Origin: Candidatus Shapirobacteria bacterium CG09_land_8_20_14_0_10_38_17 | GTDB taxonomy: Bacteria > Patescibacteriota > Microgenomatia > 0-14-0-10-38-17 | Assembly: GCA_002774085.1 (NCBI GenBank) | Contig: PEZH01000010.1 | Location: 1-28,067, forward strand | Direction: 5' to 3' | DNA: 28,067 nt | Shown: positions 4,312 through 28,062 of the stretch, in pieces | Position numbering within the stretch: the stretch's first letter is position 1 | Layout: each line of letters begins with the position of its first letter | Translations under genes and position numbers: made by a program | Notes under the pieces: model-generated | The model's input: only the letters and a program-made list of their open reading frames with translations | What the model was told of the DNA's origin: nothing | Databases searched by the model: none

Positions 4312-5760
4312 ATGGTTAGTCGTTTACAAAAAATTCGCCAAGAGAGAGTTGAAAAGTTTAAAAAGCTTCGTCAATTGGGTGTTGACCCATACCCTCCTCG
4401 AGCTAAAAGACGGGAAGTAATCGGGAAAGCACGCGCTAAATTAGGTAAGGTTGTTTCGGTGGCGGGAAGAATTATAGCTTGGCGGGCTCATGGCGGCGCT
4501 GTTTTTGCTGACTTAATGGATTCTTCTGGAAAAATTCAGCTCTTTTTTAGCCGCAGTGATGTTGGCGAGAAAAATTACGAAATTTTGACACTTTTGGATA
4601 TCGGTGATTTCTTGTGTGCTCAAGGAGAAGTTTTTAAGACAAAGCAGGGGGAAATTACTGTCAGGGTAGTTTCTTTTCAGGTTTTAGCTAAATCTTTGCG
4701 TTCTCTGCCAAACAGGTGGAGGGGCTTGAGAGATATTGAAATTCGTTCCCGAAAAAGGTATTTAGATCTTTTAGTAAACCCGAAATCGCAGCAGGTTTTT
4801 ATCCATCGCAGTCAAATTATTCGCTCGTTGCGGAAAATTTTGGATGAAGAGGGATTTTTGGAGGTGGAAACGCCTACTCTTCAACCTCTTTATGGCGGCG
4901 CTTCGGCGCGGCCTTTTATCACTCGTCATCACGCTTTAGATGCTAATTTATATCTTAAAATTTCCGATGAACTTTATTTAAAGAGGTTGATTATTGGTGG
5001 TTTGGATAAGGTTTACGAAATTGACCATAATTTTAGGAATGAGGGGATAGATAAATCTCATAATCCGGAGTTTACGATGATGGAATGTTATTGGGCAATG
5101 GCTGATTATAAAGATATGATGGGATTAACGGAAAAGATTTTTTCACAGATAGCCGTTGAGGTTTTGGGGACGACTAAGATTAATTATGGTGGTCACCAAA
5201 TTGACTTAAAACCGCCTTGGCCAAGAATAACAATGTTTGCGGCGATTAAGAAATATTTAGGTTGGGAGCCGAAGAAGATAAGCGATGGGGATTTGAAGAA
5301 GAAGTTAGCAGAGAGAAATCTTACCCTGTCAGGGGGTTTTAATCGGGGCTTGGCGGTGGCGGCTCTTTTTGAAGAGGTGGAGCCGAACTTAATCCAACCT
5401 GTTTTTATTACTGATTTTCCTAAAGAAACAACTATGCTTTGTAAGCCGCGAGAGGATAATCCTGAATTAATTGAGCGTTTTGAGCCTTATATTGCCGGTT
5501 TTGAGGTGGGCAATGCCTATTCTGAGTTAAATAATCCCTTTTTACAGCGGCAGTTTTTTGAAGAACAGGTTAAAGCGGCGGCGGTTGGTGACGAAGAGGC
5601 ACCTCCTTTGGATGAAGATTTTTTGGAGGCGATGGAATATGGAATGCCGCCGACGGGAGGTTTGGGAATTGGTATTGATCGGATGGTAATGCTTTTAACC
5701 GGTGAAGAAAATATTCGCGATGTGATTTTATTTCCAACATTGAGACCGGAAAAGAAATAG
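4312..5760 (+). CDS. lysS: lysine--tRNA ligase (class II)
   Basis: OB anticodon domain (VSVAGRI..RAHG), FLEVETPTL, motif 2 FRNEGIDKSHNPEFTMME, motif 3 YGMPPTGGLGIGIDR. Confidence 0.98.
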   Translation: MVSRLQKIRQERVEKFKKLRQLGVDPYPPRAKRREVIGKARAKLGKVVSVAGRIIAWRAHGGAVFADLMDSSGKIQLFFSRSDVGEKNYEILTLLDIGDFLCAQGEVFKTKQGEITVRVVSFQVLAKSLRSLPNRWRGLRDIEIRSRKRYLDLLVNPKSQQVFIHRSQIIRSLRKILDEEGFLEVETPTLQPLYGGASARPFITRHHALDANLYLKISDELYLKRLIIGGLDKVYEIDHNFRNEGIDKSHNPEFTMMECYWAMADYKDMMGLTEKIFSQIAVEVLGTTKINYGGHQIDLKPPWPRITMFAAIKKYLGWEPKKISDGDLKKKLAERNLTLSGGFNRGLAVAALFEEVEPNLIQPVFITDFPKETTMLCKPREDNPELIERFEPYIAGFEVGNAYSELNNPFLQRQFFEEQVKAAAVGDEEAPPLDEDFLEAMEYGMPPTGGLGIGIDRMVMLLTGEENIRDVILFPTLRPEKK

Positions 5761-24839: not shown

Positions 24840-24853
24840 GATATGTATAGTGT

Positions 24854-25230
24854 ATGGGGTTATTATGTTCACTTCGTTCACACCAACCCCATGAGTATAT
24901 GAAAAGAAAGATTTAATTTCTTAATTTCCGTGAGCGTAGCGAACAAATTTCCTAATTTCAACTAATGAAACGAGCGAATTTCTTTTAATTTCTACGAGCC
25001 TCGCACCAGAACGGTGCAGGGCTCGTTGTTTCGGTTAATTCTTACCCGTCTAGACGACGAGGCTGATAATCTCTAATATCTGTTTTGATATTTGTCCGCC
25101 GGCTGGCGGATCCCCAGCTAGCCTCGCCGATGAGGCGGGCCAGCCTCATCGGCGAGGCGGGAATGACAAGTTAGCAGCAATATAGCAATGTAATTTACCT
25201 TGTCATCCTGAGAGTACTCTGAAAGATCCT
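24854..25230. repeat. cluster of at least six different palindromic units
   Basis: atggggtt/aaccccat (24854-24892); gagcgtagcgaa; acgagcc.cgcacc/ggtgc.gggctcgt (24994-25026); tccgccggctggcgga (25095-25110); gcctcgccgatgaggc/gcctcatcggcgaggc (25121-25158) inside ggatcccc...gggaatgac; gtcatcctgag..aagatcct (25202-25230). Confidence 0.8.
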
Positions 25231-25374
25231 CCTTAAAAGCGAAGCCTTTATTTTAATGTAGTAGTCACTTCAATAGAGTGTAGTAATAATTATTTTAACT
25301 GTGAAATATATTAGAAAATCTATTTTTTTAATTCTTCTTGACAATTAATTACTTAGTATTCTACACTCTTTGTT

Positions 25375-27042
25375 ATGAAAGGGTGGAAACTGATTGTTTT
25401 GGTTTCGATAACAGTAGTCTTTTTTTTATTCCAAGAAAGCGATCCGCCAGCTGGCGGACCAACCCTGGTTGGAGATGAAGCGATATCAATGAACGCGCGA
25501 AGCGCGACACAAAGCGGAACACAAAACCCCGACCGTAAGGTCATGGGTTTTTTATTTCCTTCTTTTATTTTAGCCCAAGATAAGGCGCAACTTAATGTTG
25601 TTTCTGTCATAGATAGAACTTTTTATGGTAATCAATGTAATCAATCGGAATGGATGTGGTTGTGCCAGGTTAACAATGCCAAAGTAGCTGCTTTAGGCGA
25701 AAAAGACGGTTGGGAATTTTTTTCTGACGATCTTTTTGATTCTGGCCAAAATCAGTGGATAGAGTTAATTTTTTTACCTTACGAGGGAGAGGTTGATGCA
25801 TCAGACCTTTCTTTATTCTTAAGGATGGTCGGGGGTAATATTGGTTTGGGCCATTTAGAGGTTTTGGTGGGAGAAAATTGGGAAAGGGTTTTGGGCAAAG
25901 AGGGCAGTGATTGGCATATTTTTGGGGGTGATTCCTCCTGGAATGAACAGATTGATTTGCTGGCTGTTTTAGGAGACAAAATAACGGAAGAGATAAAAAA
26001 AGGTTTAAAACTACGTATTCAGGCAGTTCCTTTTTATGCAATAAATGATAAAATTTTATTAGCGATTGATCAGTTAGTATTATCAGTTGGCTATTCGGAT
26101 AAGGTAGAAGTTACTCCCACCTTGGTTTCAGCAACCTTGACACCTACCTTAGTATTAACTTCCGTCCCTACTCCTACGCCCACCATTACGCCTACACCTA
26201 CCCCTACGCCTACCCCAACGCCCACCCCGTCCGATCAAGAAAAACCTAAAATTTCCTGGTTAAATCCAACCGAAAATGAGGTGGTTTTTGGTAAAGTGGC
26301 CTTAAAAGTTGATATTAGTGATAATTTAAACGATATTGATGAAGAAATTTATCCTCAATTTTTTTATCGTCCTTTTGGCCAGGGGTATTGGCAGGTGATT
26401 GATAATAAAATTTGGCAAACTCAAAATATTCCTCTGGGTGATTATCAATTACGATCAAGGGTTTGTGACCGGGCGGGTAATGAGAAATTAGAGGAAATTA
26501 ATATTGGTGTAGGGGCGGTAATCTTTAATGTGTTTCTTAATGAGAGATTATTGTCTTGGAGTACCGACCGGCCAACTATCGGTCGGATTATTTATGATCG
26601 TCTTTCTCATCAAAATGTTAACCCTAATTATCCTAATTTCAGTTATGCCTGGTCTAGTGGTGAAGTAGATAATGAAAAAATAACCAGTCATCAGTTTGCT
26701 ATTCCTCCTTTGCCGTCGGGAAAATATTTTTATCGTATTTTAGCCTTTGGTTCGCCCGTGTCTTACACTCCTGAATATTCTTTTGAGACCGATAATCTTT
26801 TATCTTTTGCCAATGATGAAGATAGGGAAGATGAATCTTCAATTTTGGGATTGGTGGTTAGCGTCACTCCAGCGGTTGAAGTTGAGGATGTAAAGGTAGA
26901 AGAAAAAACTAAAGAGCGCTTTGGCTTAGATAAAAGGCGACTTTTAGTTTTAGTAGCAGTTGGCCTTCTCTCCAGTTTGGGGATTTTCTATTTGACAAAA
27001 AATAAGAAAAAGACTTTAATGAGAAGCAATGAGAAACGGTAG
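25375..27042 (+). CDS. surface protein with (TP)n linker, Ig-like and FN3-like domains, C-terminal TM; signal peptide interrupted in frame by a 126-bp element
   Basis: TTGACA-18-TACACT upstream; (TP)n run; KPKISWLNP..VALKVDISD (Ig-like); LSWSTDRP...YFYRILA (FN3-like); C-terminal LLVLVAVGLLSSLGIFYL plus basic tail. Confidence 0.8.
   Translation: MKGWKLIVLVSITVVFFLFQESDPPAGGPTLVGDEAISMNARSATQSGTQNPDRKVMGFLFPSFILAQDKAQLNVVSVIDRTFYGNQCNQSEWMWLCQVNNAKVAALGEKDGWEFFSDDLFDSGQNQWIELIFLPYEGEVDASDLSLFLRMVGGNIGLGHLEVLVGENWERVLGKEGSDWHIFGGDSSWNEQIDLLAVLGDKITEEIKKGLKLRIQAVPFYAINDKILLAIDQLVLSVGYSDKVEVTPTLVSATLTPTLVLTSVPTPTPTITPTPTPTPTPTPTPSDQEKPKISWLNPTENEVVFGKVALKVDISDNLNDIDEEIYPQFFYRPFGQGYWQVIDNKIWQTQNIPLGDYQLRSRVCDRAGNEKLEEINIGVGAVIFNVFLNERLLSWSTDRPTIGRIIYDRLSHQNVNPNYPNFSYAWSSGEVDNEKITSHQFAIPPLPSGKYFYRILAFGSPVSYTPEYSFETDNLLSFANDEDREDESSILGLVVSVTPAVEVEDVKVEEKTKERFGLDKRRLLVLVAVGLLSSLGIFYLTKNKKKTLMRSNEKR
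25430..25555 (+). mobile_element. TTAT-bounded element, copy 3 (126 bp), inside a CDS
   Basis: TTAT 25426-25429 | tccaagaaagcga ... gggttttTTAT 25552-25555; carries the tccgccagctggcgga insert. Confidence 0.9.
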
Positions 27043-27901
27043 AGGAATTTGGTCTTTTTTTATTCCTGACCAGGATAATAATTATCGCGCTCGTTTTCTT
27101 CATCTTCCTGTTTTGTCGGCCTTTATTTTTTTCTTTCTTTTGGCCCAGACTTCAATTTCTCTTTTTGCCCTGTCAAGGCCGGCTGTTTTAGGTTATTCTT
27201 CTCAAATTACTCCGGAGGAAATTGTTGAATTGACCAATTTCGAGCGGGGGAAATATGGTTTATCACCCCTTTTACTAAATGCGTCTTTAAATGAAGCGGC
27301 GCGGCGGAAGGCGGCCGATATGTTTGCTTTTAGTTATTGGGCTCACAAATCTCCTTCTGGCCGAGATCCTTGGGATTTTTTTAGAGAGGTGGGATATGAT
27401 TATATTTATGCTGGTGAAAATCTTGCCCGTGATTTTTCTACTCCTGAAGCGGTGGTAGCGGCTTGGATGATGTCTTCTTCTCACAAAGATAACATTGTTA
27501 ATAACCAGTATCAGGAAATTGGTGTCGCGGTGGTTAATGGTACTCTTGAAGGAGTAGAAACAACATTGGTAGTTCAATTATTGGGAACGCCGGTTAATTC
27601 TCTGTCTGGGGTAAAAGAGTCTGGGGTAAAAGAAGAAATACCGGTTGTCTCTTCAGTTAGTGAAAAAGAGGTGCTTTTGCCTGCCCAAAGTCCTTCTTCA
27701 AAATCATTAAGTCCTCTTTTAATTACTAAACAGGTGGCGATTTTCATTTTGGGGGTTTTGTTGGGAGCGTTGTTGGTTGATAAAATAATTGTGGAGAGGA
27801 AGAAGGTGGCGCGGCTTTGCGGCGACAATTTAGCTCACATAAGTTTTTTAATAGCAATTTTAGTGACAATATTATTAGCAAGGTCGGGGATGATAATCTA
27901 A
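27029..27901 (+). CDS. CAP/SCP-domain membrane protein
   Basis: LTNFERGKYGLSPL..N..LNEAARRKAADM...YWAH...AGENLARDF...WMMSSSHKDNI...YQEIGVAV; N- and C-terminal TM segments. Confidence 0.92.
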   Translation: MRNGRGIWSFFIPDQDNNYRARFLHLPVLSAFIFFFLLAQTSISLFALSRPAVLGYSSQITPEEIVELTNFERGKYGLSPLLLNASLNEAARRKAADMFAFSYWAHKSPSGRDPWDFFREVGYDYIYAGENLARDFSTPEAVVAAWMMSSSHKDNIVNNQYQEIGVAVVNGTLEGVETTLVVQLLGTPVNSLSGVKESGVKEEIPVVSSVSEKEVLLPAQSPSSKSLSPLLITKQVAIFILGVLLGALLVDKIIVERKKVARLCGDNLAHISFLIAILVTILLARSGMII

Positions 27902-27912
27902 TAATAATTTAT

Positions 27913-28062
27913 TCCCAGAAAGCGATCCGCCAGCTGGCGGACCAGCCTCGCCGGCTAGGCGGGCCAACCGTCAGGCTGGAGATGAAGCGATATCAATAAA
28001 CGCGCGAAGCGCGACACAAAGCGGAGCACAAAAACCCGACCGTCAGGTCGTGAGTTTTTTAT
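27913..28062 (+). mobile_element. TTAT-bounded element, copy 4 (150 bp, two nested inserts)
   Basis: TTAT 27909-27912 | tcccagaaagcga, tccgccagctggcgga, ccagcctcgccggctaggcggg, core, ends TTAT 28059-28062. Confidence 0.88.

Follow-up and report, generated by a model that had tools for sequence, protein, structure and literature searches.

The DNA analysed here (the window) is the whole 28,067-nucleotide contig PEZH01000010.1 of Candidatus Shapirobacteria bacterium CG09_land_8_20_14_0_10_38_17, and the subject of this report is a 126-bp segment at positions 25430-25555, which lies within the signal peptide region of a gene for a surface protein. The segment is an insertion with defined boundaries, which is absent from the orthologous genes and belongs to a family of short hairpin-rich elements dispersed in this genome. 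We consider that it is probably a recent, tolerated and fixed insertion of a non-autonomous mini-element of the IS200/IS605 type, its transposition chemistry and its tolerance by the host being read from sequence. An earlier note on this window, which was headed as a candidate excision switch, had named a recent tolerated or inactivating insertion as its alternative, and the evidence presented below favours this alternative.

Insertion into the signal peptide region

The insert consists of 42 codons free of stops and is read through in frame by the open reading frame (ORF) 25375-27042. One of its three sense frames is open, and this is the frame used by the host gene. The translated product is a stretch of 42 polar residues rich in Gly, Pro, Ser and Ala, and the GC content is about 0.45-0.53 at the insert versus about 0.28-0.40 around it. 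Deletion of 25430-25555 joins ...VVFFL-F to PSFILA-QDK and gives MKGWKLIVLVSITVVFFLFPSFILA-QDKAQ, a normal signal peptide. Since the 8-bp sequence TTTTTTAT is present left of the insert and again as its last eight bases, a cut shifted by 8 bp still gives the same product.

Syntenic orthologues are present in seven genomes of the same family, and their match to the host protein begins only after the insert. N-termini were extracted for four of them (G001, G002, G004 and G005), which have ordinary signal peptides of 24-30 residues and lack the 42-residue segment, as do five closer orthologues (P0001, P0002, P0003, P0005 and P0007), with 36-74% protein identity over the whole protein and the same gene order. 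Three of these proteins from the protein collection (P0001, P0002 and P0003, with 74%, 71% and 59% identity, respectively) each have an uninterrupted MK.WKL...FLFPSF..AQD signal, and the gene order of VanZ, epimerase, host gene and CAP-domain gene is kept on contigs of the closer relatives. In the DNA alignment, the empty sites of four loci (L022, L023, L025 and L026), from three of the lineages of these five orthologues, consist of a single T-run and AT followed by TTCC or TCCC, while the focal locus has the T-run and AT, the 126 bp, and then TTCC; promoter, ATG and flanks align base by base between the focal and empty-site loci. The description in the earlier note of a stop-free, in-frame insert of 42 codons, whose removal rebuilds the signal peptide and which entered after the gene existed, is thus borne out by the ORF, by the deletion product and by the comparison of orthologues that the note had proposed, and its boundaries are those given by the empty-site alignment and by the ends of the family.

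The filled allele was also found in independent sequences. The left junction is crossed by Logan contigs of three runs (X2, X6 and X11) and the right junction by one X2 contig. The filled allele is also present over its full length in L203, a JGI metagenome contig of independent origin, where 2 of 3093 bp are mismatched, one of these within the insert. The filled state is the consensus allele in the contigs of every sample examined, and it is common to two genotypes separated by single-nucleotide polymorphisms (SNPs). Because this is a repeat family of high copy number, and the assembled contigs often terminate in one of its copies, a repeat misplaced into the gene by the assembler had to be considered; this would require the same error in every independent assembly, including the per-run contigs that cross both junctions and the metagenome contig that spans the insert, and we give it practically no weight. 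The insertion is judged to be recent because about 2 of 126 positions separate the focal copy from the consensus of its subfamily (a loop shortened by 2 nt and one substitution); it is 96% identical to the nearest family copy. Features of the locus and of the candidate transposition genes are listed in Table 1.

Table 1. Features of the insert, its host locus and the transposase-related genes of the genome (positions without prefix are those of the window; G000 with a contig number marks other contigs of this genome)
Feature	Position	Strand	Remarks
Insert of 126 bp, probable non-autonomous IS200/IS605-like mini-element	25430..25555	+	covariance model R1, 128 bits
Left-end 13-mer TCCAAGAAAGCGA, conserved	25430..25442	+	bases 1-3 paired with GGA, 25516-25518 (helix P0)
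GC micro-palindrome TCCGCCAGCTGGCGGA, 16 bp	25443..25458	+	optional module, missing from 116-117-bp variants
Hairpin P1 (CCAACC-CT-GGTTGG), left subterminal hairpin	25459..25472	+	covariation across genera
Hairpin P2, invariant CGAAG centre	25494..25506	+	
Right-end hairpin P3, then TTTTTTAT	25527..25555	+	imperfect, -9.4 kcal/mol
Promoter-like site TTGACA-18-TACACT	25338..25367	+	10/12 matches; ends 7 nt 5' of ATG
Host gene, surface protein, function unassigned	25375..27042	+	ORF of 555 amino acids
n-region (MKGWK), intact apolar h-region (residues 6-19), target T-run + AT (25420-25429)	25375..25429	+	
Displaced c-region PSFILA and predicted signal-peptidase site	25556..25578	+	A|Q between 25575 and 25576; -3/-1 rule
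Host protein layout	Pro/Thr linker 26113-26232; membrane anchor 26941-26994		N-terminal signal, Cys-containing N-domain, Pro/Thr linker, Ig-like region, C-terminal membrane anchor
Downstream CAP-domain gene	27029..27901	+	PF00188, E 1.3e-15
RAYT-like Y1_Tnp gene, 228 amino acids	G000:C27:8344-9039	-	own palindrome each side
RAYT-like Y1_Tnp gene, 221 amino acids	G000:C5:10471-11145	+	own palindrome each side
TnpB-like ORF, intact, 376 amino acids	G000:C23:4732-5862	+	no adjacent tnpA
TnpB-like fragments	G000:C35:199-879; G000:C35:4106-4381	+; -	

The mini-element family and its relation to IS608

In the assembly of this genome (523 kb, 53 contigs, 83% complete), 27-29 copies of the family are recognisable, and four of them (1-117, 611-726, 25430-25555 and 27913-28062) lie in the window. 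Common to the copies is a left end of 13 nt, TCC[A/C]AGAAAGCGA, immediately 3' of (T)TTAT, followed in order by P1, a GATGAAGCGAT motif, P2 with its CGAAG centre, ACAAAGCGGAAC and an A-run, P3, and the terminal TTTTTTAT. The length variants (116/117, about 126 and about 150 nt) are distinguished by GC micro-palindromes placed behind the 13-mer. Terminal inverted repeats are absent, and TCCAAGAAAGCGA... at one end is not the inverse complement of ...GGGTTTTTTAT at the other. Left flank and right end share only TTAT, whatever sequence lies further out, and a fixed 4-bp TTAT duplication is formally indistinguishable from a TTAT shared by flank and end. Essentially every copy in this genome has (T)TTAT as its left flank; in copies of other genomes this flank is of the TTAT type in 18 of 21, TTAC in two and TGAT in one.

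A covariance model (R1) was built from ten copies, and by this model the 110-130-nt unit is also present in 8 other genomes among 150 sampled from the class, with up to 14 copies in one genome. With 29 model matches in this genome and almost none in its seven nearest relatives, the distribution is judged to be patchy and the expansion in this genome to be lineage-specific. In an alignment across genera that had been fitted to the model, 94.5% of the cells are paired and 17 of the 19 pairs have changed on both sides, compared with 31-52% pairing in slid controls. P1 has the compensatory variants CCCGCC/GGCGGG in two copies, and helix P0 is 100% paired with both-side changes at all three of its pairs. 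P0 (25430-25432 with 25516-25518, just upstream of the right-end A-run) is a long-range helix enclosing P1 and P2, and its pairs vary among genera (TCC/GGA, AAC/GTT, TGC/GCA, TTC/GAA and CAC/GTG).

No Rfam family for the element was found either at gathering thresholds in the whole window or at E values up to 10 in 25380-25600. In exact scans of genome contigs, the two internal motifs as patterns gave 0 matches, and the 17-mer of the left end gave about the number expected by chance, except for two real copies in one Candidatus Shapirobacteria metagenome-assembled genome (MAG). These copies, L052:5109-5220 (-) and L087:1230-1344 (-), are divergent and have identical left 13-mers and internal motifs and entirely different P1 and P3 stems; it is the motifs, not the stems, that are conserved across genera.

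Other forms related to the family are present in this genome. Two minimal forms of 45 nt (G000:C27:22062-22106 (-) and G000:C40:78-122 (+)), with TTTAT on the left, consist only of the 13-nt left end, A-run, P3 and TTTTTTAT. A second element type with the same left end and the same GC palindrome ends in ...CTTGTTCTTTAT (G000:C42:6015-6080 (-), C17 ~5455-5651 (-), and on C21, C28, C45 and C48), and mini-elements lie directly after its TTTAT, so that arrays arise in which elements are in tandem or nested, as if each element offered its right end as target to the one that came next. At G000:C28:246-331 (+), a sequence that is tRNA-like by eye is directly followed by a right-end module (CAAAGCGGAACA..., P3, TTTTTTAT) whose left part is missing. 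The window starts and ends in element copies (1-117 and 27913-28062), as other contigs likewise do; the family is probably a main cause of the fragmentation of the assembly, and a longer, gene-carrying copy could have been lost in this way. Provision of start codons to downstream genes by the elements was considered and rejected, as the overlaps on C17 and C36 are artefacts of choosing the longest ORF and the real starts lie downstream.

The nearest published scheme is that of IS608, which inserts 3' of TTAC. This tetranucleotide is not part of the element and is found 19 nt 5' of the left hairpin, and the cleavage site at the right is internal to the element, 10 nt 3' of the right hairpin (PMC3201880). 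Each cleavage site is recognised by a guide of 4 nt located 5' of the foot of its hairpin (AAAG for the left site), and excision leaves a donor joint without gain or loss (PMC3201880). Like IS608, the present family lacks terminal inverted repeats and inserts 3' of a fixed tetranucleotide outside the element, the TTAT lying 16-18 nt 5' of P1 in the basic variant. At the right end, TTAT is part of the element and ends 7-8 nt 3' of P3. An A-rich 4-mer (AAAA or AATA) stands 5' of both hairpin feet in most TTAT copies. The two TTAC-flanked copies (L164 and L166, from one genome) end in TTAC and have AAAG at three of their four guide positions, L166 at both ends and L164 at the right, with AAAT at the left. 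There is good, though thin, support in this geometry for a single-strand 'peel and paste' chemistry, by which excision would in principle be scarless.

Several features are unlike IS608. The family is known only as a unit of 110-150 nt, with no tnpA having these ends in the genomes examined; the covarying helix P0 and the central hairpin P2 could not be placed in the scheme published for IS608; and in the 126- and 150-bp variants of this genome GC palindromes replace the left 4-mer, and P1 is unlike P3. In the focal copy it is the micro-palindrome at 25443..25458 that takes the place of the A-rich 4-mer 5' of P1, so that the focal subfamily has CGGA at the left guide position, and in the 126-bp variant the distance from the left cut to the P1 foot is 29 nt, through the inserted palindrome.

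A Y1 transposase with matching ends was found neither in this genome nor in four other carrier genomes. No R1 match lies near the two Y1_Tnp ORFs of this genome or nine others in G148, G046 and G063, and G040 and the Shapirobacteria MAG carry copies of the element and have no Y1_Tnp match. The palindromes flanking both Y1 genes of this genome are unrelated to the ends of the mini-element; the gene on C27 has TAGCCTCGCAAGG.GACTCCTTG.GAGGCTA on both sides. The TnpB genes on C23 and C35 were rejected as an autonomous parent, their right ends (…TAGTCTTTAGC.TAGTGGTAGTT.AC) being unrelated to the mini-element, and no autonomous parent exists among the model matches, all of which in 151 + 8 genomes are the short unit. 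Of the earlier proposal of a scarless IS200/IS605 element, the end geometry therefore stands, while no matching transposase was found in the genomes searched, of which the assembly of this genome is 83% complete.

Effect on the host gene and the question of excision

The Pfam search of the host protein found no family, and the structural leads (Atlas) are weak and Big_7-like (Ig-like). Both hexamers of its promoter-like site are invariant across four orthologous loci in the DNA alignment. The CAP-domain gene overlaps the end of the host gene by 14 nt, as it does in the orthologous loci, and by this overlap the two genes are probably co-transcribed. The spacer between the epimerase gene and the host gene (24840-25374) is 535 bp here compared with about 147 bp in L022, L025 and L026, the extra length being a pile-up of GC-rich palindromic units. 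The ratio of nonsynonymous to synonymous substitution (dN/dS) of the host gene against its orthologues is 0.13-0.28, and that of the focal branch is about 0.15 with the rest of the gene intact. As a test of function after the insertion this branch value is uninformative, because most of the branch predates the insertion.

The apolar run of residues 6-19 (14 residues) is uninterrupted and corresponds to the complete apolar run in the orthologues, insert bases completing its last codon. The insert sits between this core and the Pro that opens the c-region PSFILA|QD, and the earlier description of an h-region split by polar sequence was inaccurate. Among the places in a secreted protein, the boundary between hydrophobic core and cleavage region belongs to the most permissive. 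The intact n- and h-regions would still target the protein to the membrane. The -3/-1 rule is the established basis for placing signal-peptidase sites, and by it the normal cleavage site is moved by 42 residues, so the protein would probably keep an N-terminal tether or be processed at a cryptic site.

At the right end of the insert, the focal P3 consists of 4 bp, a 2-nt bulge and 3 bp and is followed by T6, with a stability of -9.4 kcal/mol compared with -13.6 kcal/mol for the consensus. The hairpin and T-run that had been likened to an intrinsic terminator are thus present and resemble a weak one in the mRNA; the stem, however, is imperfect, and a consensus terminator scan made no call at P3 on the + strand. 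The G-to-A change that weakens P3 also creates an in-frame ATG (Met57). A locus-specific weakening of the terminator was considered and rejected, since the same change occurs in the intergenic copy C42:5898-6014 and several intergenic stems are weaker. The final T-run in other genera is only T3-T5, which points to the TTTAT cleavage site and not to a U-tract as the conserved feature of the right end. In many cases a copy ends 5-26 nt upstream of a co-oriented gene's start codon, and transcripts must therefore often read through P3. The imperfect hairpin and T6 might lower full-length transcription without abolishing it, and partial termination of the host gene and the overlapping CAP gene is plausible.

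The same features could mean that the gene has been inactivated, either by termination at the hairpin and T-run or by a displaced cleavage site that blocks maturation, so that the host gene, and perhaps the CAP gene, are becoming pseudogenes. The hairpin with its T6 is on the sense strand 150-180 nt into the mRNA, the cleavage site is 42 residues from the apolar core, and for so young an insertion an intact ORF would be expected either way. Without selection, however, an insert would be in frame and free of stops in only about one case in three, the imperfect stem is uncalled by the terminator scan, sister copies lie directly upstream of the start codons of co-oriented genes, and the allele is common to two genotypes differing by SNPs. 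On this balance we regard inactivation as unlikely, and prefer a tolerated insertion.

Because identical 8-nt sequences (UUUUUUAU) flank a highly structured insert, we also considered whether it might be removed from the RNA, or bypassed in translation from one of these sites to the other. The insert is open in frame, so bypass is needless; no stop follows the take-off site; there is no Rfam ribozyme or intron match at E values up to 10, and the same element is intergenic at 26 other places. We hold such a process to be extremely improbable.

The earlier note proposed that a TnpA acting in trans could toggle export or expression of the surface protein; a Y1 transposase would then precisely remove the element in some cells. 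In its favour, the geometry predicts a scarless excision that would rebuild the signal peptide exactly, two Y1_Tnp genes are present in the genome, and the family has been mobile in the lineage, as its 29 matches here versus almost none in the seven nearest relatives indicate. The expected empty-site junction is ...TTTTTTTTAT joined directly to TTCCTTC, in which the left T-run and AT lead directly to TTCCTTCTTTTA. No joint skipping 25430-25555 was found in contigs of four runs, three of which (X2, X6 and X11) cover the locus, and the exact empty-site pattern, with tolerance for T-run length, had 0 matches in metagenome contigs versus 1 for the filled junction; contigs drop rare variants, and excision at low frequency lies outside the reach of this search. 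As to whether both alleles occur in one population, only the filled one was seen, in the contigs of the three runs and in L203. Both Y1 genes, moreover, carry their own, different palindromes with no model match, the left guide 4-mer is missing in the focal subfamily, and nothing sets the focal copy apart from the intergenic copies. The proposed switch is thus unsupported, and we consider it improbable. Its most specific form is still more doubtful: an orphan RAYT-like Y1 protein would excise the 126-nt element scarlessly at low frequency and restore both a cleavable signal and full transcription of the operon of surface protein and CAP gene. If true, it would be phase variation by a transposase-less mini-element in an ultra-small bacterium of the CPR (candidate phyla radiation)/Patescibacteria type.

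Survival of a genic copy and its significance

The genome has 3849 TTTAT sites, 82% of which are in long ORFs (about 3,150 inside genes), whereas only one of 27 copies of the element is genic and 26 are intergenic (binomial P ~1e-18). Genic insertions have therefore been removed by selection. Copy lengths are multiples of three in 10 of 19 cases, an excess which is not significant. TTTAT is common in codons of hydrophobic segments in an AT-rich genome, and under the preferred reading the mini-element would have been inserted 3' of a TTTAT that happened to come from Phe and Leu codons of the signal peptide. This copy would have survived because its length is a multiple of three, it is read in its single open frame, and it lies at the permissive boundary of the core and the cleavage region.

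Three points weigh against this reading. The assignment to IS200/IS605 is made from geometry only, because no cognate transposase was found, and the GC palindrome at the left guide position of the focal copy misfits the left-end cleavage rule of IS608. The insertion is too young for decay: under neutrality roughly one disabling mutation is expected since it occurred, so the intactness of the ORF says little and is no proof of continued function. With these points taken into account, a recent, tolerated and fixed insertion remains the probable explanation.

Short hairpin-rich repeats placed in frame in coding genes and translated have been described as Rickettsia palindromic elements (RPEs) and as intragenic MITEs (miniature transposable elements with inverted repeats) such as ERIC, BOX and Coxiella QMITE1 (PMC10969869). 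The present insert is like RPEs in being a short hairpin-rich repeat translated in frame as an extra peptide; unlike RPEs, which are often genic, the family has one genic copy among 27, a lone survivor and not the habit of the family. The event is thus of a known kind, a miniature mobile element translated in frame, which is well documented and ordinary. REP/BIME sequences with their RAYT (TnpA-REP) resemble the family in GC-rich palindromic modules, mosaic arrangement and domesticated-looking Y1 genes with their own palindromes, but the element here has defined asymmetric ends and a fixed flank and is not a REP doublet, and the palindromes flanking the two Y1 genes differ from it in sequence.

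Phase variation by precise excision of an insertion sequence is known for IS492 in eps of Pseudoalteromonas and for IS256 in ica of Staphylococcus, where both alleles have been observed in one population and the element encodes its own transposase. As in these switches, a mobile element is present in a surface-related gene which its precise loss would restore; unlike them, only the filled allele is seen here and the element is without a transposase.

The locus provides a base-precise pair of filled and empty sites for a structurally constrained mini-element family without a known transposase. This pair fixes the boundaries of the element and shows its target (T-run and AT) and a recent movement of the family in a 0.5-Mb groundwater genome. 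If excision were demonstrated, the locus would be a simple phase-variation device in a group for which hardly any gene regulation is known. For the present, it shows in what kind of position selfish DNA can persist within a streamlined genome, with one genic copy among about 3,150 genic target sites.

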